From Candidatus Levybacteria bacterium RIFCSPHIGHO2_01_FULL_40_16 (GTDB taxonomy: Bacteria > Patescibacteriota > Microgenomatia > Levybacterales > UBA12049), in assembly GCA_001783805.1 (NCBI GenBank), contig MFNS01000007.1, forward strand, positions 89,975-153,974: a DNA stretch of 64,000 nt, read 5' to 3'. Under the pieces are notes generated by a model. The model was not told the origin of the DNA, made no database searches, and saw nothing but the letters and a program-made list of their open reading frames with translations. Position 1 is the stretch's first letter, and every line of letters starts with the position of its first letter. Position numbers and translations under genes: made by a program. Shown here one piece after another: positions 2,310-38,173 of this stretch.

Positions 2310-3958
2310 TTCAAAATCTCCCGGAAGAGTTAAGAAAAATAATTAAAGGCGATGTTTTATCGGATGACCAAACCCTCAAAGACTATAGTCATGACTATAG
2401 TCTTTTTGAAGTGAAATCAAAAGTTGTTGTCTTTCCCAAAGATGCGCAAGATTTACAGGCATTGATTAAGTATGTTGCTGAGAATAAAAAAAATGATCCA
2501 TCATTGTCTTTGACAGCCAGAGCCGCGGGAACAGATATGGGCGGAGCCGCTATTAATGATTCTATTCTTGTAGAATTCACTAAATATTTTAATCATTCGC
2601 CAAAAGTAAATGGGGATATTGCTACAACCGAACCGGGTGTCTTCTTTAAAGATTTTGAGAAAGAAACTTTAAAGCATAACCTTATTTTTCCGTCTTACCC
2701 CGCATCAAAAGAAATTTGCGCCATGGGCGGAATCTTAAACAACAACGCGGGCGGAGAAAAATCCTTGCAATATGGAAAAACGGAGAAATACATTAGAAAA
2801 ATGAAAGTAATGCTAAGAGATGGAAATACCTATGAATTAGAAAAACTTTCAGAAGGCCAACTTCAGGAGAAACTTGCTCTTAAAACGTTTGAAGGAGAAA
2901 TCTACCAAAAAATGTACAAACTGATTACTGAAAATTATGACGAAGTTGCAAAAGCTAAACCCGATGTTTCCAAAAACTCTGCCGGATATTATTTATGGAA
3001 CATTTATGATAAGGCAAATAAAACTTTTGATTTAACTCAGCTTTGGGTGGGGGCGCAAGGCACACTGGGATTTTTACTTGAAGCGGATATTCAACTTGTT
3101 CCGACGTACCCCCATAGAGAAATGGAGATAATTTTTCTGCACGATCTTTCACATTTGGGAGAGATTATTGATGCAATATTGCCACTTCAGCCCGAAAGTT
3201 TTGAGTCGTATGATGACAACACTCTTAAACTTTCCCTTAGGTATTTTCCGGAATTTGCCCGCAAATTGGGCATCTGGGGGCTTATCCAGTCCGGACTGGC
3301 ATTTCTACCGGCATTTTTGGAGATGTTAATCGGCAGACTTCCTAAACTTATTTTGCAAATTGATTTTACAGGCAACAGTCCCGAGGAACTTCAAAAAAAA
3401 ATAGCCACCCTCCGCGAAAAGCTTAAGCCACTGCATCTACAAACCCGGACTGCTATTGATGATGCAGAAAAAAAATATTGGCTGATTAGAAGAGAAAGTT
3501 TCAATTTATTACACAATAAAATAAGAGATAAACACACCGCCCCCTTTATTGATGATTTCGTGATCGACCCGCATTTAATCTCGGAAGTTATTCCGAGAAT
3601 AACCACAATTTTGAAAAAACATCCTGAATTCATTTTTACTGTCGCAGGCCACGTTGGAAACGGAAATTTTCACATCATTCCCTTGGTTGATATTGAAAAT
3701 CCCAATGTCAGAAAATATATTCCGATAATTGCAGATCAAGTCTATAATATTGTTAATAAATATCATGGTTCAATAACCGGAGAGCACAACGACGGATTAA
3801 TCCGAACTCCCTATCTGAAACAAATGTACGGAGAAAAAATTATTCAGCTTTTTGAAGAAGCCAAAAAGATTTTTGACCCTGACAATATCTTCAACCCGCG
3901 GAAAAAAGTCTTCGGAGATCTGAAATTCGTGATGAGCCACATTAGGCAAAAGTGGTAG
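2306..3958 (+). CDS. FAD-binding oxidoreductase (GlcD/D-lactate dehydrogenase-like FAD-linked oxidase)
   Basis: N-terminal FAD_binding_4-like region (ARAAGTDMGGAAIN) and C-terminal FAD-oxidase domain. 4-nt overlap with the upstream gene. Confidence 0.7.
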   Translation: MIQNLPEELRKIIKGDVLSDDQTLKDYSHDYSLFEVKSKVVVFPKDAQDLQALIKYVAENKKNDPSLSLTARAAGTDMGGAAINDSILVEFTKYFNHSPKVNGDIATTEPGVFFKDFEKETLKHNLIFPSYPASKEICAMGGILNNNAGGEKSLQYGKTEKYIRKMKVMLRDGNTYELEKLSEGQLQEKLALKTFEGEIYQKMYKLITENYDEVAKAKPDVSKNSAGYYLWNIYDKANKTFDLTQLWVGAQGTLGFLLEADIQLVPTYPHREMEIIFLHDLSHLGEIIDAILPLQPESFESYDDNTLKLSLRYFPEFARKLGIWGLIQSGLAFLPAFLEMLIGRLPKLILQIDFTGNSPEELQKKIATLREKLKPLHLQTRTAIDDAEKKYWLIRRESFNLLHNKIRDKHTAPFIDDFVIDPHLISEVIPRITTILKKHPEFIFTVAGHVGNGNFHIIPLVDIENPNVRKYIPIIADQVYNIVNKYHGSITGEHNDGLIRTPYLKQMYGEKIIQLFEEAKKIFDPDNIFNPRKKVFGDLKFVMSHIRQKW

Positions 3959-3959
3959 G

Positions 3960-4580
3960 TTAGATTTCCGCAACTTTTCTTCTTTTCGCGTAGAGAATAT
4001 AGGGGATGATACTTAATAAATTCGTGACTGCCACCAGATAAAATAAAAAGGCAAACCCATATCGATTGGCCACAAATCCTCCGATGGTGGCAGCCATTGC
4101 CATACCCATAAACACAAATCCGTCATAAATACTCCACTCCGTAACTTCTTTATCCTTATCCAGATGTGAAGAAAATAAAGAATTTTTTGCAGGAGAAGCA
4201 ATCCCCAATCCCGCACCAATAACACCATAATAGAAAAATAAAGAAAGAATATCTTTGGTTAAAGCAAACCCCAGATATCCGCCGCTCATGAGAATAATGC
4301 CGATAATGGTGACTATAAATTTCTGCATTTCGGATGAATGGGAAAGATATTTTCCGCTGATCAATTCAAAAACAACTCTCACAATTAGATAAGTACTAAA
4401 AGATGCTGCCGCAATCTCGGTATTCCCTTCGGGTATTTGAGTGGCCGCAAAAATAGCGAAAATCGGAATAATCGCATTCCAGGAAGACCAAAGGAAGATT
4501 TCGGAAATTATAAATGCCTTCACAACCGCATTCATGTGAAAATGTGAGGGTTTTCTTCCGAGAAAAACTTCTTTGATCAT
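3960..4580 (-). CDS. Six-TM membrane protein resembling the C-terminal half of an MFS transporter (possibly truncated)
   Basis: Hydrophobic profile with about six TM segments. Glycine-rich helices typical of MFS. Only a half-size transporter. Confidence 0.45.
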   Translation of the reverse strand: MIKEVFLGRKPSHFHMNAVVKAFIISEIFLWSSWNAIIPIFAIFAATQIPEGNTEIAAASFSTYLIVRVVFELISGKYLSHSSEMQKFIVTIIGIILMSGGYLGFALTKDILSLFFYYGVIGAGLGIASPAKNSLFSSHLDKDKEVTEWSIYDGFVFMGMAMAATIGGFVANRYGFAFLFYLVAVTNLLSIIPYILYAKRRKVAEI

Positions 4581-4601
4581 TTATCTTAGCTTATCACATT
4601 T

Positions 4602-5465
4602 TTACCAGGGTTTGAAATCCTCTTGAGCCAGAAATTTTATTAACTCCATTCCTGTTTTATATCCCGGACGCAGTCTGTAAAGAAAAAACTTATTTCGTAT
4701 TGTTTGTTTAATTCCCGGAATAGTTGAAACCGCATTTGTATATCCTGCATTTTTAACCATATTTATTGTCCGCCGGTCAAGCGCCCCGTACGGATAGGCA
4801 AAAGAATTAACCGAAAGCCCGGTCATATCTTCAAGCACTTTCTTGCTCTGCGCTATTTCATATTCTGCAGTTTTTTTATTGATGTCTTTAAGCCAGGTGT
4901 GATTGAGCGTATGAGATCCGATCTCAACCAAAGAGCTTTTGGCAATTTCTTTGACCTGAAAAGTGGACAGATAATTTTCTTGATTCAAAAAATTCGCAAC
5001 GACATAGACAACTGCTTTTACTTTTTCCTTTTTGAGGATGGGAAAAACATCCGTGTAAAAATCCGAATATCCATCGTCAAAGGAAAGAATAATTATTTTT
5101 TTAGGGAGTACTAACTCTCCAAGAAGATCTTTTATCAAATCGTCCGGAGCTACAAAGGTGTAGCCCGCAGTTTTTAAAGTTTTTATTTGAGCCTGAAGAA
5201 CATTCGGAGGAGTTGCAAAATTTTCTTTCTTCGGATCATTTTTTACATACTCCACGTAATGATACAGAAATATAGGTACTTTAATTTGTTTTTCAAATAA
5301 TTGCGGTCCTATTCCCGTATCCGATAGATTTTCCAGCTCCGGCGGAAGTACCGTCACCAAAGTATCCATACTTAATTCCGGAACCTTGCGTAATTGATAG
5401 GACATTAGTAGTCCTAAGATTGCAAGAAGAATAACGAGTGCTCTGATATTTTTTTTCCTAATCAT
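4602..5465 (-). CDS. Polysaccharide deacetylase (NodB homology domain), signal-anchored
   Basis: N-terminal TM segment. FDDGY...D/HTxxH (GSHTLNH) NodB motifs. Confidence 0.8.
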   Translation of the reverse strand: MIRKKNIRALVILLAILGLLMSYQLRKVPELSMDTLVTVLPPELENLSDTGIGPQLFEKQIKVPIFLYHYVEYVKNDPKKENFATPPNVLQAQIKTLKTAGYTFVAPDDLIKDLLGELVLPKKIIILSFDDGYSDFYTDVFPILKKEKVKAVVYVVANFLNQENYLSTFQVKEIAKSSLVEIGSHTLNHTWLKDINKKTAEYEIAQSKKVLEDMTGLSVNSFAYPYGALDRRTINMVKNAGYTNAVSTIPGIKQTIRNKFFLYRLRPGYKTGMELIKFLAQEDFKPW

Positions 5466-5498
5466 TTATTCCTGTATTATACGCAGTTTCAGAGTTGT

Positions 5499-6284
5499 TT
5501 GACAACGCAATCTCTTTATGATACATTTCTCCCAATGACAAGAGAAAAATCACCAAAATCCGATCTTGAACAACTTGCTATCTCCAGCATGGAAAAGCTC
5601 CGCCTTAATACTTATCCCGGAAGAGGCATAGTGATGGGATTTAATAAACAAGGGGATCAGGCAATTCAGATCTATTGGGTCATGGGAAGAAGTGAAAATT
5701 CCAGGAATAGAATTCTCGTTCAAGAGGGAAACGTTGTTAAAACAAAGCCTTTTGATGCAAGCAAAGTTAAAGACCCAACTTTGATAATCTATACGGCTAT
5801 GAAAGAAGTTAGGGGAGGACACCTCGTATCAAATGGAGATCAGACAGACAGCATAGCTCAAATAATAGAAAAAGGGGGCACCTTTGGAGAGGGGCTAAGG
5901 GAAAGGACGTATGAACCTGATGCGCCAAATTTTACTCCAAGGATTACAGGAGAATACTCGTCTGAATCTGAATCTCCATTTTTTATCCTTTCAATAATCA
6001 GAAAAGATCCCTTTAGTGATCGCCCAATACACAACCTTCAATTATATAAACCCGAGAGTGGAACAGGTAAATGTATTCATACTTATGAAGGAGATGGCAA
6101 TCCTTTACCATCGTTTAAGTTAGATCCTTATCTAGTCACCCTTGAGGGATCAATAGATCAGATAGCACAAACATTCTGGGATTTACTGAATGCAGAAAAC
6201 AGAGTAGCATTAGCTGTAAAAGGGGTCGATATAAGAACTGGAAAGGTAGACTTTAAAATAATTAATCAACTCGGTAATAAATAA
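5499..6284 (+). CDS. purO: Archaeal-type IMP cyclohydrolase (PurO family)
   Basis: YPGRGIV.G...Y.V.GRS..SRNR ... VSNG.QTD ... NFTPRI pattern matches PurO-type IMP cyclohydrolases. Immediately upstream of an AICARFT-only purH. Confidence 0.6.
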   Translation: MTTQSLYDTFLPMTREKSPKSDLEQLAISSMEKLRLNTYPGRGIVMGFNKQGDQAIQIYWVMGRSENSRNRILVQEGNVVKTKPFDASKVKDPTLIIYTAMKEVRGGHLVSNGDQTDSIAQIIEKGGTFGEGLRERTYEPDAPNFTPRITGEYSSESESPFFILSIIRKDPFSDRPIHNLQLYKPESGTGKCIHTYEGDGNPLPSFKLDPYLVTLEGSIDQIAQTFWDLLNAENRVALAVKGVDIRTGKVDFKIINQLGNK

Positions 6285-6460
6285 GAACTCTGAATACTCT
6301 TCACCCAACAAATGAGCAATTTCCTGAAAAAATTGCTCTGCGGGGGCGGAAAAAAATCGAACTTCGTTATGGGGAAAATCCGCACCAAAAAGCTGCAGTT
6401 TATTTTGAACCGAATAATAATTCTCCGCTTAATAACTTACAGAAATTAACCGGCAGAGAT

Positions 6461-7288
6461 TTGTCTTATGTTAATTTTACAGATGTTGCAGCGGGACTGG
6501 AGTCAGTCAGGATTTTTGCTGAACCTGCAGCTGTTGTCATTAAACACAACAGTCCTTCCGGAATTGCCTTGGGCTCCTTGCCTGCCCAGGCGCTTAAGCG
6601 CGCGGTGGCCGCAGATCCGGAATCCGCATTCGGCGGAATAATTGTTTTGAATAAACCTTTGGATATTCAAGCAGCCAAAACTTTCGCCGGTTTTAAAGAA
6701 AAGAACGGTGTACTAATCGATGTTGTTGCTGCCCATAGCATTACCAATGAGGCAAAAGAGTTTATCAGAACAGTCCGTAAAACTACCGGCATCTATACTT
6801 TCGGAAACATTCCTAAGCAGAGATCAAATTCGACTCATTTAAGATTTTTTGACGGCGGATTTGTAGTCCAGGAGTGGGATGATCAGATTGATTTTTCCAA
6901 ATGGAACATTGTCACAAGAAAAAAACCAACCTTCAAGCAAAGAAAGCAAATGGAGCTTGCCTGGAAATTTATCGGCAGAATTAGGTCAAATTCAATTATT
7001 GTGGTTGACAAAAATTTGCCAATGACCCGGGGTATTGGGTCGGGACAGACTTCCCGGGTAAGGGCTACCAAAATTGCTCTTGAGCAAGCAGGCAAAAACG
7101 CCAAAGCTGCGATTTTGGCAAGCGATAGTTTTTTCCCCTTTGATGATTCGGTAAAGCTGGCTGCGGAAAGCGGAATAGCCGCGATTGTCCAGCAAGGCGG
7201 ATCAATCAACGATCAAAAGTCAATTGATGCGGCAAACAAAGCAGGCATTGCCATGGTTTTCACCTCGGAGCGCAAATTCTGGCACTAA
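6461..7288 (+). CDS. purH: AICAR transformylase domain protein (PurH, AICARFT-only, lacks the MGS-like IMP cyclohydrolase domain)
   Basis: C-terminal ASDSFFPFDDS...QQGGSINDQ...AMVFTSERKFWH is the classic PurH AICARFT end. The conserved LRYGENPHQ motif is encoded upstream at 6362-6391 in the same frame, which is open from 6281. There is no ATG/GTG/TTG in that frame before the TTG at 6461. The true start is therefore probably a non-canonical codon near 6281-6340, or is translationally coupled to purO. Confidence 0.8.
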   Translation: MSYVNFTDVAAGLESVRIFAEPAAVVIKHNSPSGIALGSLPAQALKRAVAADPESAFGGIIVLNKPLDIQAAKTFAGFKEKNGVLIDVVAAHSITNEAKEFIRTVRKTTGIYTFGNIPKQRSNSTHLRFFDGGFVVQEWDDQIDFSKWNIVTRKKPTFKQRKQMELAWKFIGRIRSNSIIVVDKNLPMTRGIGSGQTSRVRATKIALEQAGKNAKAAILASDSFFPFDDSVKLAAESGIAAIVQQGGSINDQKSIDAANKAGIAMVFTSERKFWH

Positions 7289-30956: not shown

Positions 30957-31949
30957 CTATGCAGAAATTCCCATTTTCTCTTTGACAATTTTGAGGGTTT
31001 GGGAGGATTTGGTCTTAGCAAATTCAGCTCCTTCATCTAAAACTTGTCTTAATAACTTATCGCCCGATCTTATTCCCTGATATTTTTTTTGGATTTGGCT
31101 CAAAGATGAAACCAGTAAACCCGCCAAAATAGATTTGAATTCGCCGTAAGATTTTCCTACTAATTCTGAAGTCGAGTTTTTGAAACTTTGATTTTTGAAA
31201 ACAGAATAAATTGTTACAAGATTGGCAATTGCTTCCGAAGGATTTTTGGAAATACTGGAGCCGGAATCCGTCACTGCTCTTCTTACCTTTTCCCTAATTT
31301 CTTTTTCACTATCTAATAAATTAATTGTTCCCAACGGATCTTTGTCGGATTTACTCATTTTGGAATTCGGATTTTGCAGACTCATTACTCTGGCAGTTTC
31401 TTTTTGAATTACCGGCACAGGAAGTTTAAAAGTTTCTCCATATTTTTTATTAAATTTTTCTGCCAGATCGCGGGTTAATTCAATGTGCTGTTTTTGATCT
31501 TCCCCAACCGGCACCTCATCTGTTTGATAAAGTAAAATGTCGGAAGCCATCAAAACCGGGTAATCAAAAAGCCCAACATTCGCTTCGTGTTTTTCGCTTT
31601 TTTCTTTAAACTGGGTCATTCTTTCCAGTTGTCCGAAAGGTGTAATCGTATTTAAAAGCCAGGTAAAATACGGATGGTCGGGATTTTCGGATTGAATAAA
31701 AATGTGCGCTTTTTTAGGATTAATTCCACAGGCCAAATACAAAGCGGCTACTTCCAATACTTTTTCTTGCAATATTTTCGGATCTTGAGGTACGGTGATA
31801 GCGTGCAAATCAACAATGCAAAAAAATAATTCTGAATTCTGAATTCTAGATTCTGAATTCTGCAGATTAACCCATTGACTTAATGCGCCAATATAATTTC
31901 CGATATGCAGATTTCCTGATGGCTGAACTCCGGAAAACACTGTTTTCAT
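30957..31949 (-). CDS. trpS: Tryptophanyl-tRNA synthetase
   Basis: HIGNYIGAL (HIGH) and KMSKS. Contains an in-frame tandem heptamer insert near the N-terminus. Confidence 0.9.
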   Translation of the reverse strand: MKTVFSGVQPSGNLHIGNYIGALSQWVNLQNSESRIQNSELFFCIVDLHAITVPQDPKILQEKVLEVAALYLACGINPKKAHIFIQSENPDHPYFTWLLNTITPFGQLERMTQFKEKSEKHEANVGLFDYPVLMASDILLYQTDEVPVGEDQKQHIELTRDLAEKFNKKYGETFKLPVPVIQKETARVMSLQNPNSKMSKSDKDPLGTINLLDSEKEIREKVRRAVTDSGSSISKNPSEAIANLVTIYSVFKNQSFKNSTSELVGKSYGEFKSILAGLLVSSLSQIQKKYQGIRSGDKLLRQVLDEGAEFAKTKSSQTLKIVKEKMGISA

Positions 31950-32036: not shown

Positions 32037-32300
32037 CTAGCTCCCATAAAGTTTTTCCATTTTATTAAGAGCTTCTATATAATAAATCTCGCAAAGTTGT
32101 CTTAAAGTATACGGTGAATTTCCATAATATGGTTCAGTTGCGCTTTTAGCTGTTACTATAACCAGTTTTCCATCTATCCTTGTGATTTCCTTGCCAACAG
32201 GAATTTTCGGAACTTTTTCTTTTTGATGAATTACGGGTGCAAAACCCAGTCTTCTCTCATTCATACACATCACCTCCTTTCTTAAGTAATGCCATAGCAA
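32037..32300 (-). CDS. Hypothetical small ORF (doubtful)
   Basis: ORF only. Partly overlaps the racemase remnant. Confidence 0.2.
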   Translation of the reverse strand: MLWHYLRKEVMCMNERRLGFAPVIHQKEKVPKIPVGKEITRIDGKLVIVTAKSATEPYYGNSPYTLRQLCEIYYIEALNKMEKLYGS

Positions 32301-32454
32301 TAATTTTTAACGGATTAAAAACTGGAAAAGTTTGTTTAGGAGGAAAAATTAAAGGCAATTCCGTACATCCCAAAATTATACCTTGTGCTCCTCTTTTTCT
32401 AAGATTATTGGCGGTAGAGAGAAGTATCATGCTGTCTTTGCGGTCAGGATTGAA
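32257..32454 (-). pseudogene. C-terminal remnant of an Asp/Glu racemase family gene (only ~65 aa incl. the GIILGCTELPLIF catalytic-Cys motif)
   Basis: ILGCTELPL is the conserved second catalytic-cysteine motif of the Asp/Glu/hydantoin racemase family. The roughly 150 aa that normally precede it are absent because murD ends at 32474. Confidence 0.45.
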
Positions 32455-32473
32455 AAGAGATTCTTCGCTTCGT

Positions 32474-33775
32474 TCAGAATGACAACTCCCTAACGGCTTT
32501 CTTAAACTGTTCTCCCCTATCTTTATAATCCTTAAATGTTCCGAAACTGGCGGAAGCAGGAGATAATAAACAAATTTTTCCGGGTAGAGTTTCTGCAGCT
32601 GCAATTCGCATTGCCTGCTCCATTGTTGTTACATCAAATTTTTCCGGACGGCTTCCTTCCGATGTAATTTTGCAAATTTCCTCCCAAATTCTTGCCCCAG
32701 ACGGCGGAAATAAAATCAAAGTTTTTATTTGCCCCCTACCCACATGTTGTGCCAAACCGGAGTAATCAAGTCCTCGGTCAAAACCTCCTGCAATCAGAGT
32801 CTGTGTATCGGGAAAGGTTTTAAGCGCTTCAATTGTCGCTTCCGGTATTGTTGCCAGGGAATCATTGTAAAAAAGTATGCCATTTTTCGCACCTGCAAAT
32901 TCTAATCTATGCTCCAAACCCGTAAATTCTTCTAAAACTTTCGCAATATTTGTCTTTGAAACACCGGCCAAAATTGCCGCGCAAACTGCTGCGCAAACAT
33001 TTTCTAAATTATGGCGACCTAAAAGCTTTATTCTCTCGATGTCAATAATTTTTTTCGCTTTACCATCGCGGCTCATCCAAACACTGTCTTCTTTTATGAA
33101 GCATCCGTTTTCTACTTCTCTTTCCCTGCTTACCCTGAAGATTCGTCCTGCTGTATAAATGTCCGACTCGTCGCTTGCCAAATAATCCTTATTTATAATT
33201 GTAAAATCTTGCGGATCTTGAAATTTTAAGATATTTCTTTTCGCATCAACATACGCTTCCTGAGTTTTGTGATAATCCAAATGCTCACTGGTAATCATGA
33301 GAACTACGGCAATATGCGGACTTATTTTTAGATCATTAAGCTGATAGCTGGACATCTCCAAAATCGTCCAGGAATTGTCATTTAAATTATCTATAAAATT
33401 CAAAGGAGATTGTCCGATATTTCCCCCCAAATACACATCGAGCCCTTGTTTTTTCAACATCTCAAAAATTAATGTTGAAGTTGTGCTTTTTCCTTTTGTT
33501 CCGGTTACCCCAATCACTTTCCCTTTGGCATTGGATAAAAAAATATTGGTTGCGGTTGTGTATGGAGTTGTTATTAATTCCGATTTTACTCCCGGAGATT
33601 TTATTGCAATGTCGTAACTTTTTTGTTTGTCCAAATAATTACTTCCATCTTTTTGATCAACAATATCAATTGTAGAATTTTGTAAATGTTTTTTAAGATA
33701 TTTAAGCGCAGCACTCCCTTCAATTCCTTTTCCGACAATTAAGATCTTTTTGTCTTTTAATTCCGCAAGTTTCAT
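32474..33775 (-). CDS. murD: UDP-N-acetylmuramoylalanine--D-glutamate ligase MurD (or L-Glu-adding MurD2)
   Basis: Mur ligase P-loop GVTGTKGKSTTSTLI, plus central and C-terminal Mur ligase domains. Confidence 0.9.
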   Translation of the reverse strand: MKLAELKDKKILIVGKGIEGSAALKYLKKHLQNSTIDIVDQKDGSNYLDKQKSYDIAIKSPGVKSELITTPYTTATNIFLSNAKGKVIGVTGTKGKSTTSTLIFEMLKKQGLDVYLGGNIGQSPLNFIDNLNDNSWTILEMSSYQLNDLKISPHIAVVLMITSEHLDYHKTQEAYVDAKRNILKFQDPQDFTIINKDYLASDESDIYTAGRIFRVSREREVENGCFIKEDSVWMSRDGKAKKIIDIERIKLLGRHNLENVCAAVCAAILAGVSKTNIAKVLEEFTGLEHRLEFAGAKNGILFYNDSLATIPEATIEALKTFPDTQTLIAGGFDRGLDYSGLAQHVGRGQIKTLILFPPSGARIWEEICKITSEGSRPEKFDVTTMEQAMRIAAAETLPGKICLLSPASASFGTFKDYKDRGEQFKKAVRELSF

Positions 33776-34989
33776 AAACTTTTAAAATGCTTCACAAGAA
33801 TTGTTTTATTAAATTCTCCTTTTCCTAAAATTCTTTCCAGGGCTTCTTTGACTTCTTCCGGCGTACCAACGCACTCAAAGGGTTTGAAATTTCTAATGCC
33901 AATTAATTCTTCAAAAAGCGGCAAAAGGCTTTTTTCCTCAAGCAGGTTCTTGCCAAAAATAGCTAACACTTCTTTTTTGGGAAGAAAAGCCGCAAGAGAT
34001 ATAAAAACAAACAGGCACTTCGGACATTCCCTGCACCATCGACTTGCCTTGAGCGAAGCCGAAGAATTAATTTTGTAATTCTTATTGCAGCTGGAAAAAA
34101 CTTTAAAATATTTAGGATATTTTACAAATTCTTCCACGGCTTGCAATTCGGTCATCTGCCTTAAAGGTGACGAATACGAAATGTCCGGCGTTATAAATCT
34201 TTTAACATAATCATTAAAAAGTTTTTCAAACTCTTCGGATTTGCTCCACTGATGATTAACCATTTCCCCCAAATATTCAACATTTCCATAGTTAGCACTT
34301 TTCTCATTTCCAACAATTACAGATCTATAATCAAATAACGCCGCCATTAAAAGGAGTATAAATGCGTAATATACAGAGATTGGCACGTGCCCATTGTAAA
34401 CGTCCGCCTCTTTATTTAACTCCAAAAGTTTGGGGTCTATTTCTTTGAATGTATTAATTATTTCTCCGCCGATCATCTTGGCAATTTCAATTTGTATCGG
34501 AAAACCTGAAGTAGCCAGATCAAATTGCTGATTGGATTGCCTTAAAAGTTCTGCTGCAACTATTGAATCTTTCCCCCCTCCAATTCCCAAAAGCGAACGG
34601 TTTTTTCTGGGAAAAGAAACTAATTTTTCTGAATTCTGCTTTGCAGAAGGAAAACTGACTAAGCCTCTAAAATCGATTTTGTTTTTATAAAAAAACTCCC
34701 CCATTCCTTTGGTATAAACAATATTCCAAAATTCCGCCTGTTCGTGGGTAAGAAAGTTATTCTCGACGACAATTTCCTTCGGACAGTAAGCCTTCCAATA
34801 CGAAATACCCAAAATCAGCATGAGATTGTTTAATAAAGATTTAAGTAAAGTTTCAGGAATTTTGTTCGTGACCGGAGGAAAAGAGATCTTTTCCGCAAAA
34901 TCTATGTTTTTCTCACCCCTGAAGCCAAAACTAAAAATTATTTCGCCTTTTTCGAGATTAGACTCGTGCCCTTTGAATACAAATTTCAT
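33772..34989 (-). CDS. PP-loop (SGGxDS-type, here GGGKDS) ATP pyrophosphatase-family protein with a C-terminal CxxC motif, translationally coupled to murD; candidate MurL-like epimerase
   Basis: LLGIGGGKDSIVAAELL PP-loop, CRECPKCLF. Start chosen at ATG 34989 (MKFVFKG) because the ORF-track start at 35022 overlaps tRNA-Met. ATGA overlap with the murD stop. Confidence 0.6.
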   Translation of the reverse strand: MKFVFKGHESNLEKGEIIFSFGFRGEKNIDFAEKISFPPVTNKIPETLLKSLLNNLMLILGISYWKAYCPKEIVVENNFLTHEQAEFWNIVYTKGMGEFFYKNKIDFRGLVSFPSAKQNSEKLVSFPRKNRSLLGIGGGKDSIVAAELLRQSNQQFDLATSGFPIQIEIAKMIGGEIINTFKEIDPKLLELNKEADVYNGHVPISVYYAFILLLMAALFDYRSVIVGNEKSANYGNVEYLGEMVNHQWSKSEEFEKLFNDYVKRFITPDISYSSPLRQMTELQAVEEFVKYPKYFKVFSSCNKNYKINSSASLKASRWCRECPKCLFVFISLAAFLPKKEVLAIFGKNLLEEKSLLPLFEELIGIRNFKPFECVGTPEEVKEALERILGKGEFNKTILVKHFKSL

Positions 34990-34995
34990 AAAAAG

Positions 34996-35067
34996 TACCA
35001 GGGGTGGGGATCGGACCCACAACCGCAGCGTTATGAATGCTGTGCTCCACCATTGAGCTACCCTGGC
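34996..35067 (-). tRNA. tRNA-Met (anticodon CAU), elongator-type, intron-less
   Basis: Hand fold: acceptor GCCAGGG/CCCUGGU, D-arm GCUC-AAUGGUG-GAGC, anticodon loop UUCAUAA, T-arm GUGGG-UCCGAUC-CCCAC. Confidence 0.8.
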
Positions 35068-35076
35068 GAGTGTTAA

Positions 35077-35787
35077 CTATTTTAACATTTTTAGTCCTTC
35101 AATCCAACCCTTCATCTTCAATAACCGATCTAAGCTTTCTCTTACATGAATCCTTAAAACTCCGTGATAATTAACCGTATTATACTGTTTTTTCCACTTC
35201 GAGGTTTGAAAAAAAGGTTTCGTAAACTGATCTAATGGTATTCCAATTGTTCTTGCCCAAAAACCTTGTATTTCATTAATCTTATCTTCATACAGACAAT
35301 TAAGCGTCAGTCTTGCAACTAATTGACTCTTATCGACGCCCAAATACTTTTCCAGCCAATAAATATAAAATTTAATCATTGCTGGATCGGAATTACAGAA
35401 ACCCAATCGGTGCTCATGCCTATTCTTAAATCCTTCTGCCCAATATAGGGAAACTCCCGCGATTAAAAAATCCCTAGGACTTAGTTTTCCAATTTCCTTT
35501 AGCCCAATTTCCAATAATTCTTTTTCATTTTTTTGCCTTTTTTCTTTCTGAACTGTCTGAAACCGCACTCTTCCCTTTTGCAATGATTTTTGAACACGGT
35601 TTTTCAAAACCAAAGCCTGGTTTTTAGATAAAATAATATCTCTAATCCAAGTACGAATAGTTGTACGAGGGACACCTGTATTTTGGAATATCTGGCCAAG
35701 ACTAAAGCCTTTCTGTCTTAGATGGCGAACTTTATTCTTTATATCTTGGCTATATTGCACATATCTATTATGCGCACTTATATGCAT
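35077..35787 (-). CDS. HTH-domain protein, possible LAGLIDADG-type homing endonuclease (FLIAGVSLYWAEGFK), lying between two tRNA(CAU) genes
   Basis: N-terminal HTH (GFSLGQIFQNTGVPRTTIRTWI) and a degenerate LAGLIDADG-like motif. Start placed at ATG 35787, because the longer ORF-track start would overlap the tRNA exon on the other strand. Confidence 0.45.
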   Translation of the reverse strand: MHISAHNRYVQYSQDIKNKVRHLRQKGFSLGQIFQNTGVPRTTIRTWIRDIILSKNQALVLKNRVQKSLQKGRVRFQTVQKEKRQKNEKELLEIGLKEIGKLSPRDFLIAGVSLYWAEGFKNRHEHRLGFCNSDPAMIKFYIYWLEKYLGVDKSQLVARLTLNCLYEDKINEIQGFWARTIGIPLDQFTKPFFQTSKWKKQYNTVNYHGVLRIHVRESLDRLLKMKGWIEGLKMLK

Positions 35788-35871
35788 AATGTCAATAAGA
35801 AATTGATAATCTCGAGCGTTGTACAATGTCGTATTGACTACAACCTCTAATTCTGATAAGATGCTTCTACG

Positions 35872-36143
35872 CGCGGGGTAGTGTACAGTGCACGTGAGGC
35901 TCAAAATGGGCCTCCCGCCAAGTAATTGACGGGAAGAACTTAGCTATATCGGTGAAACCCTAGATGGATTCAGGGTAATACCGAGGGAATCCCGATTCGA
36001 TCGGGAACTCCGTAGAGACTACACGCTAAGCCCCCTGCACATTTCAAAGATGTGAGAGGGGTGAAGATATAGTCCGACACTCTGGGTAACCGGAGCAACA
36101 GATGCATAATCTCACAGGTCGGGCGCAACTCCCGACCCCGCAA
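35872..36143 (+). tRNA. Initiator-like tRNA-Met (CAU) interrupted by a group I intron: exon 1 35872-35901, exon 2 36105-36143
   Basis: Acceptor CGCGGGG/CCCCGCA + A73 (C1xA72 mismatch, identical to E. coli tRNA-fMet). Anticodon stem UGAGG/UCUCA. Spliced loop CU-CAU-AA. Atypical D-loop (ACAGU) and T-loop (CGCAACU). Confidence 0.75.
35902..36104 (+). ncRNA. Group I self-splicing intron (203 nt) between U33 and C34 of the tRNA
   Basis: P1 is exon GAGGCU pairing with GGGCCUC, with U-G at the splice site. P-like AAUUGACGGGAAG (35924-35936). R CCGUAGAGACUACACG (36010-36025). P8 hairpin (36032-36061). S GAAGAUAUAGUCCGAC (36063-36078). P9 ACUCUGG-GUAA-CCGGAG (36079-36095). Terminal G at 36104. Confidence 0.8.
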
Positions 36144-38095: not shown

Positions 38096-38102
38096 AATAA
38101 TG

Positions 38103-38173
38103 TAGGCCCAGGGGGAATCGAACCCGCATCAGGTGTGTATAAGACACCCGCTTTACCATTAAGCTATGGGCCT
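38103..38173 (-). tRNA. tRNA-Ile with anticodon UAU (reads AUA)
   Basis: Hand fold: acceptor AGGCCCA/UGGGCCU, D-arm GCUU-AAUGGUA-AAGC, anticodon stem GGUGU/ACACC with loop CUUAUAC, T-arm GCGGG-UUCGAUU-CCCCC (one C-C mismatch). Confidence 0.7.

Follow-up and report, generated by a model that had tools for sequence, protein, structure and literature searches.

Does D-glutamate (D-Glu) enter the peptidoglycan of a Levybacterium by way of the L-isomer, as it does in Xanthomonas? The question is raised by a locus in the 64,000-nucleotide stretch analysed here (hereafter the window; positions 89,975 to 153,974 of the forward strand of contig MFNS01000007.1, assembly GCA_001783805.1) from Candidatus Levybacteria bacterium RIFCSPHIGHO2_01_FULL_40_16, a member of the Candidate Phyla Radiation (CPR, Patescibacteria), where a murD gene overlaps a gene for a 405-residue PP-loop protein and adjoins a piece of an Asp/Glu-racemase gene. 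An initial annotation of this DNA had proposed a MurD2/MurL-type route to D-Glu and had taken the racemase relic to fit the logic of a replacement by MurL. The first proposal has held up, with a MurL-family match for the PP-loop protein, a predicted PP-loop fold and the specificity residues of MurD2 in the coupled ligase; the second, as described below, has not. In our estimate the two genes form, with a probability of roughly 0.85, a murL-murD2 operon that would carry out the alternative early peptidoglycan step first described in Xanthomonas oryzae, the racemase fragment being unrelated debris. This reading draws on the homology of both proteins, the order and overlap of their genes, which match those in Xanthomonas, the MurD2 specificity residues, the PP-loop core and a CPR-wide synteny that includes gene fusions.

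The PP-loop protein is encoded on the minus strand (33772..34989), and its only match in NCBIfam is NF041275 'MurL_Xanthmoales' (E 3.9e-102, 342 bits, profile positions 9-409 of 447), the model for UDP-N-acetyl-alpha-D-muramoyl-L-alanyl-L-glutamate epimerase. Its precomputed Pfam annotation consists of the two MurL domains, PF26299 MurL_N and PF26298 MurL_epimerase_C (calls taken from that annotation; the Pfam copy used for our direct scan lacked the MurL models and gave no MurL match). When PLSDB was searched by tblastn, the RefSeq-annotated murL of X. sacchari was recovered (record NZ_CP010410.1); its product and the window protein have 35% identity over 406 residues (E 7e-82) and share the blocks IGGGKDS, NGH(I/V)P, NExSAxYG, VNHQWSK, FSSCN, RWCxxCPKCxFVF and KPFECVG. 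JGI and UniRef call CPR homologues MurL as well. Comparison with the MurL families, which the initial annotation had named as the way to check its proposal, therefore came out in favour of it, and on this homology the protein is a full-length member of the family. The two motifs on which that annotation had relied are both present, GGGKDS at residues 137-142 (34564..34581) and the CxxC motif, read from the sequence, as C319-x2-C322-x2-C325 (CRECPKC, residues 319-325; 34015..34035). MurL_N covers about residues 1-125 and is followed by the PP-loop ATP-pyrophosphatase core and the C-terminal Cys cluster.

Akin to the Xanthomonas protein, the window MurL thus shows full-length homology with the invariant motifs GGGKDS, NGH, NHQWSK, SSCN, WCxxCPKC and KPFECVG, and is encoded directly upstream of, and overlapping, a MurD-type ligase gene; it differs in a C-terminus that is shorter by some 45 residues (405 versus 451 in all) and in its host, an ultrasmall CPR bacterium outside the taxa that the reviews list (Xanthomonadales, a few Alphaproteobacteria and rare actinomycetes). 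MurL-like 'hypothetical proteins' were also found on Pseudonocardia plasmids in PLSDB (NZ_CP010991.1 70681-71841, NZ_CP011869.1 224831-226057, NZ_CP052772.1 307535-308563), with 26-29% identity over 84-99% of the length of the window MurL.

The partner gene, murD, encodes 433 residues (32474..33775, minus strand). At the junction, AAA AGT TTA TGA AAC, the murD ATG overlaps the murL TGA in a 4-nt ATGA. As both genes lie on the minus strand and the murL stop overlaps the murD ATG, murL is upstream of murD in transcription; the initial annotation had the overlap right and the order reversed, placing the PP-loop gene downstream. In X. sacchari, murL (positions 3782-5137 of locus L090) is likewise ahead of and overlaps murD (5118-6554). 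An ATGA overlap by itself is commonplace.

We then asked what the ligase can tell us about the isomer it would accept. Its Mur_ligase_M/C match, three-domain Mur ligase architecture and catalytic residues (K115, N138, E157, H183 and K198 in E. coli numbering, all conserved) are those of a Mur ligase, and it scores 328 bits against the murD model TIGR01087. The MurD2 of X. sacchari scores 298 bits with the same model, both are above the cut-off, and both are named 'D-glutamate ligase'; NCBIfam holds no MurD2 model. Because X. sacchari MurD2 passes the same model and bears the same name, such names are silent on stereospecificity. The residues near the glutamate are more informative. From E. coli MurD to X. 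oryzae MurD2 these change as D182 to E197, K348 to R358, A414 to P433 and L416 to F435; the double exchange E197D/R358K turns X. oryzae MurD2 into a ligase for D-Glu, stereospecificity is unchanged in P433A and F435L, and E. coli MurD K319T accepts L-Glu (PMC8788868). We mapped these positions onto the window ligase by alignment with structures of E. coli MurD and by a multiple alignment. The window ligase has E164 at D182 and R334 at K348, where X. sacchari MurD2 has Glu and Arg; L307 at K319, where X. sacchari MurD2 has Ile; A409 at A414 (Pro in X. sacchari); and F411 at L416 (Phe in X. sacchari). Both experimentally defined specificity residues, E164 and R334, are thus MurD2-like and the loss of K319 is shared with Xanthomonas MurD2, which by sequence argues that the window ligase is of the MurD2 type. 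In other words, it resembles X. oryzae MurD2 in its Mur-ligase architecture, its conserved catalytic residues, Glu and Arg at the positions of D182 and K348 and an aromatic residue at that of L416, and X. sacchari MurD2 in the hydrophobic residue that replaces Lys319.

The same signature runs through the ligases encoded next to murL elsewhere (n=79). Arg occupies position 348 in 78 of them, and position 319 is Ile in 56, Leu in 18, Ala in three, Phe in one and Asn in one and is never Lys. Glu is found at position 182 in 61 and Pro at position 414 in 61/79, and all 79 that extend to position 416 have Tyr or Phe there. As canonical controls we used 16 MurDs (14 from diverse cultured bacteria, mostly with annotated dcw-cluster neighbours, and two PDB chains, E. 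coli and S. agalactiae), in which position 182 is Asp, Ala, Thr or Asn and never Glu (0/16), and K319 is present in 15/16. The loss of K319, which lies in the NDSKAT motif, is our own candidate marker, prompted by the K319T result (PMC8788868); combined with Glu182 and Arg348 it could serve as a practical sequence rule for separating MurD2 from MurD in annotation. A murD without the conserved Lys319 was also seen in Pusillibacter faecalis (NZ_AP023421.1, a plasmid-labelled record, locus L094; annotated murD at 701-2077, by yunB), with Asn, Ile and Lys at the D182, K319 and K348 positions and no murL within the 2.7 kb inspected. PLSDB includes whole chromosomes or pieces of them with dcw genes, for example NZ_CP093325.1 (5.5 Mb), NZ_OL790696.1 (4.8 Mb) and NZ_CP010410.1 (508 kb); such records are a useful source of canonical murD controls and carry a data-quality caveat.

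Gene context provided additional support for this interpretation. A scan with the MurL alignment over one genome per GTDB species confirmed at least 564 loci, across Microgenomates, Parcubacteria-type lineages and others, and the context was counted in the best 80. Almost all of these 80 are from CPR/Patescibacteria, among them Levy-, Roizman-, Gottesman-, Woyke-, Kuenen-, Sung-, Taylor-, Colwell-, Buchanan-, Uhr-, Moran- and Kerfeldbacteria, Peribacteria and Saccharibacteria. In 78 of the 80, murL is directly followed, on its own strand, by a gene for a MurD homologue, the two exceptions being contig ends, and in 13 of 79 non-redundant loci MurL and MurD form a single open reading frame (ORF) of about 830-880 residues (L031, L043, L053, L058, L063, L068, L069, L070, L075, L076, L078, L079 and L082, with the match at around positions 4001-6600). 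One such fusion, of 857 residues, was checked and has MurL at 1-433 (401 bits) and MurD at 433-852 (300 bits). Linkage (78/80) and fusion (13/79) are beyond chance, and such constancy argues that the products of murL and murD act in consecutive steps. In a search of 1.84 billion cluster representatives, 2643 relatives of MurL were found at E<=1e-3 and 1159 at E<=1e-30, many of them 800-900 residues long. For one representative of 883 residues (P0371), the MurL part lies at 439-821, which suggests a reversed domain order. The classic criterion for the pathway is a genome that lacks murI and dat; in its favour here, precomputed annotation and Pfam scans revealed no murI, no class-IV/D-amino-acid aminotransferase and no further mur gene in the 64-kb window.

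Several observations weigh against a MurL-MurD2 pathway in this organism: (i) the 342 bits of the window MurL are below the NF041275 equivalog cut-off of 700, a cut-off tuned to Xanthomonadales; (ii) the window ligase is only 29% identical (126 bits) to X. sacchari MurD2, compared to about 30-33% to canonical MurDs; (iii) in a neighbour-joining tree (401 columns) the CPR murL-linked ligases and X. sacchari MurD2 are joined with a bootstrap of only 54/100, so that their monophyly is weakly supported; (iv) A409 of the window ligase is MurD-like, Ala rather than the Pro found at the A414/P433 position of MurD2; (v) at position 182, Asp takes the place of Glu in 19 of the 79 murL-linked CPR ligases; (vi) the search for another source of D-Glu extended over only about 8% of the genome (64 kb out of a contig of at least 776 kb); and (vii) the evidence on the CPR members comes from sequences and models.

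Could MurL be real, then, and the ligase be a normal MurD that adds D-Glu? In that case the source of D-Glu would be a host or a racemase encoded elsewhere in the genome, and MurL would serve in the repair or proofreading of mis-incorporated L-Glu, or in another role. The ligase is nearly always named 'D-glutamate ligase' and passes the TIGR01087 cut-off, it is overall as similar to canonical MurDs as to X. sacchari MurD2, a quarter of the murL-linked CPR ligases have Asp at position 182, an Asp/Glu-family racemase adjoins murL-murD in relatives, and D-Glu sources were sought within the 64-kb window. The name and the model match, however, apply equally to X. sacchari MurD2 (298 bits, annotated as D-Glu ligase), and the window ligase combines E164 and R334 with the absence of Lys319, a residue found in 0/79 murL-linked ligases compared to 15/16 canonical ones. 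In addition, an obligatory linkage with frequent fusion points to consecutive steps. We therefore regard a normal, D-Glu-adding MurD as unlikely here, and continue with the MurL-MurD2 reading.

What, then, is the racemase fragment that lies on the other side of murD? It is a 57-residue ORF (32257..32430, minus strand) that starts 44 nt past the murD stop, carries GIILGCTELPLIF and still has LGCTELP, the second catalytic-Cys motif. Its match to Pfam Asp_Glu_race is confined to the C-terminal end (profile positions 161-208 of 211, E 1.1e-6), so the initial annotation was correct in calling it a remnant of an Asp/Glu racemase, although the racemase part is about 54-57 residues long and not about 65. 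Its best match in NCBIfam is TIGR00035, the aspartate-type amino-acid racemases, and not MurI. In a close relative (GCA_023379505.1, locus L005), the MurL of which is 80% identical to that of the window, an intact racemase of 231 residues lies between murD and trpS, and the relic aligns to its residues 176-229. This intact protein scores above the cut-off of TIGR00035 (148.6 against 93.1 bits) and well below that of the glutamate-racemase model TIGR00067 (43 against 146.65 bits). The DNA alignment with L005 shows that the first ~520 nt of the racemase gene are missing from the window, leaving the C-terminal quarter of a TIGR00035-family gene; over the retained part the relic is 56% identical to the L005 racemase and 77% identical to that of a second relative, L015. 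As it comprises only the last ~55 of ~230 residues and the first catalytic Cys is gone, the relic cannot be active, and as the locus recurs with the same fragment in independent assemblies (ENA and JGI), it is no assembly artefact. The relic shares with MurI and the TIGR00035 racemases the two-cysteine Asp/Glu superfamily (PF01177), of which it keeps the second Cys motif, but unlike MurI it belongs to the Asp-racemase subfamily and has no functional tie to murL-murD2.

The slot between murD and trpS is variable among relatives, which have tgt (tRNA-guanine transglycosylase), the racemase, both or neither in it; the order in L015 is murD, tgt (split), racemase, trpS, and other relatives have tgt alone. 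It looks as if a single local deletion removed both tgt and the 5' three quarters of the racemase gene from the window. Given intact racemases alongside murL-murD in L005 and L015 and the CPR-wide occurrence of murL-murD, we take the truncation for a recent local deletion that bears no trace of a pathway replacement. Among Levybacteria, tgt itself is broken into two ORFs in some (L015, 3466-4805; P0013) and intact in others (L006, L007 and L008). The sequence GTCATTCTGAACGAAGCGAAGAATC at the murD stop/deletion junction was considered as a repeat element and rejected, as it occurs once in the window. Within the end of the relic, and outside the pathway, a 75-residue ORF with a strong Shine-Dalgarno sequence, AAAGGAGGTGAT (32037..32264, minus strand) occupies the spot where the racemase end of relatives abuts trpS; it has no Pfam match and was seen, among 87 loci, in this population only.

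These data bear on a further explanation, in which the remnant records a recent switch: an Asp/Glu racemase formerly made the D-Glu, murL-murD2 was then acquired, and the racemase decayed. The truncated gene does adjoin the murL-murD pair directly, and some TIGR00035-family racemases are of broad specificity. Yet the intact orthologue is Asp-type and far under the MurI cut-off, it persists beside murL-murD2 in L005 and L015 (the L005 ligase having the same MurD2 signature), the murD-trpS slot is variable in general, and the loss of tgt and racemase looks like a single deletion. Moreover, murL-murD is kept across many CPR phyla and is far older than the racemase deletion, and the data point to the presence of murL in the ancestor of Levybacteria before the truncation. 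We give very little credence to a recent switch, and return to the two-gene pathway with the racemase fragment as a bystander.

How might MurL act? In the reviews it 'lacks known conserved domains', requires ATP and Mg2+, yields AMP and acts only from L to D (PMC8788868, PMC5808125). A search of PDB sequences with the window MurL gave no match at E<=1, and therefore no solved MurL structure is available for comparison. An AlphaFold2 model built on an alignment of 139 homologues was of high confidence (mean predicted local distance difference test score, pLDDT, 95.0; predicted template modelling score, pTM, 0.93), and its nearest PDB folds are QueC, Cap9, argininosuccinate synthetase (ArgG), TtuA, ThiI, LarE and TilS, all of its best neighbours being PP-loop ATP pyrophosphatases (Foldseek E for QueC, 1.3e-5). 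MurL is thus predicted to have a PP-loop fold, a point that the initial annotation had been unable to verify, and such a fold agrees with the reported ATP-to-AMP stoichiometry. Fully invariant in the 139 sequences are G137, G139-S142, H201, N245, H246, S249, K250, C301, C319, C322, C325, K369, P370, C373 and E379, while G138 of the PP-loop is nearly so. The invariant C301 and the C319-x2-C322-x2-C325 motif (together 34015..34089, minus strand) probably form a structural zinc site, by analogy with QueC, the Cys cluster of which binds zinc. MurL resembles QueC (PDB 3bl5), Cap9, ArgG, TtuA, ThiI, LarE and TilS in the Rossmann-like PP-loop core with an SGGxDS-type loop, QueC in the Cys-x2-Cys-x2-Cys cluster beyond that core, and the PP-loop ATP pyrophosphatases as a group in what may be, by analogy, the adenylation of a carboxylate or carbonyl with release of AMP. 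It differs from QueC in a C-terminal helical region with KPFECVG and in a sequence of which only the central ~173 residues can be aligned, at 14% identity, and from the group in its putative substrate, a UDP-muramyl dipeptide, and in an outcome that would be epimerisation as opposed to amidation or thiolation.

The proposed sequence of steps is as follows. The MurD2-type ligase would put L-glutamate, rather than D-glutamate, onto UDP-N-acetylmuramoyl-L-alanine (UDP-MurNAc-L-Ala), and MurL, using ATP, would flip the added residue to D-glutamate. To this end the PP-loop core may adenylate the Glu alpha-carboxylate, giving AMP and pyrophosphate as in other PP-loop enzymes, which would acidify the alpha-proton and allow a conserved base to invert the activated alpha-carbon. 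Candidates for this base are Cys373 of the KPFECVG motif (33871..33873, minus strand), invariant in the 139 sequences and in X. sacchari MurL, as well as His201, His246 and Lys250. Hydrolysis of the adenylate would free AMP and render the reaction irreversible. The N-terminal domain may, as pure conjecture, hold the UDP-MurNAc moiety, and the 4-nt ATGA overlap, like the fusions elsewhere, may keep the two activities stoichiometric. Such a pathway would use no free D-Glu, and for this reason it would need no MurI.

An alternative in which the 405-residue protein has nothing to do with MurL, and is instead a QueC-like or tRNA-modification adenylating enzyme overlapping murD by chance, could appeal to QueC as the nearest solved structure, to a few JGI entries that call homologues '7-cyano-7-deazaguanine synthase' and to a murL start 5 nt past a tRNA gene, but it is effectively refuted, and in our view scarcely credible, as QueC is merely the nearest fold (14-16% identity over ~173 of 405 residues), full-length MurL is the sole match in Pfam/NCBIfam with none to QueC, TilS or any other PP-loop family, and the protein is homologous to X. 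sacchari MurL and conserved in synteny and fusion with the ligase.

In light of the reviews, which describe the MurD2/MurL route as restricted to 'relatively few bacterial genera' (PMC8788868, PMC5808125), the related loci indicate that the Xanthomonas-type route is widespread in CPR. The system itself is already known (2017), and names in Pfam, UniRef and JGI already label many CPR homologues; in the open-access literature that we searched, no paper links the MurL/MurD2 pathway to CPR/Patescibacteria, nor was anything relevant found there on glutamate racemase in these bacteria. Compared to this searchable literature, what is modestly new is the CPR-wide distribution, the frequent MurL-MurD2 fusions, the explicit prediction of a PP-loop/QueC-like fold, and the loss of K319 as a marker. 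We lean, by a small measure, towards the broader view that MurD2/MurL is the standard and probably ancestral CPR route to D-Glu, often fused, with MurL a QueC-like zinc PP-loop adenylating enzyme and Cys373 the epimerisation base. If MurD2/MurL is the standard route, most CPR 'MurD' annotations would bear the wrong substrate stereochemistry, and the reduced CPR genomes would need no glutamate racemase. For the locus at hand, a 'hypothetical protein' and a ligase with relatives routinely named 'D-glutamate ligase' would become a coherent two-step pathway, and the mechanism of MurL could be approached structurally from the predicted fold, the invariant Cys residues and the fusions found in nature.

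With regard to the surroundings, the order along transcription is tRNA-Met(CAT), murL, murD, the 57-residue ORF, the 75-residue ORF, trpS (30957..31949, from precomputed annotation/Pfam) and ftsH, all on the minus strand. The murL product is identical on 25 contigs from several assemblies and is recorded there as 'hypothetical protein'. The tRNA-Met gene (34995..35067, minus strand; ARAGORN) ends 5 nt ahead of the murL start codon, a layout also found in L008 (3019-3097) and L009 (3923-4001). A longer murL with a TTG start at 35022 was considered and rejected, and since this position is inside the tRNA gene, the ATG at 34989 is the correct start. The 5-nt gap leaves no space for a Shine-Dalgarno sequence beyond the tRNA, and the murL message would be almost leaderless once the tRNA 3' end has been processed. 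Gene callers in other assemblies stretch the N-termini of MurL across the tRNA (P0085 and P0113 begin 'MVEHSIHNA..GSIPTP'). Scans for promoters and terminators between 31800 and 36600 gave matches at chance level (12 versus 13.0 expected and 3 versus 4.2 expected, respectively).

Beyond this locus, the window holds genes for purine biosynthesis, ftsH, trpS, divIC, a xerC/D-type integrase, type-IV-secretion-like ATPases, ruvABC, dnaA/dnaN, transketolase and others. Between divIC and tRNA-Met, a 275-residue ORF (35077-35904, minus strand) has weak helix-turn-helix matches only (transposase-like, E ~0.01) and no family; its homologues occupy the corresponding site in L008, L009 and L017 and a different one in L043, and the slot varies among relatives. 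Lastly, a tRNA-Ile with the anticodon TAT (UAU) was found at 38102-38173 on the minus strand. A UAU anticodon is unusual in bacteria, in which AUA is normally read by a lysidine-modified CAU tRNA, and this tRNA is conserved close to the locus in Levybacteria (L005-L009, L014, L017, L020 and L054).

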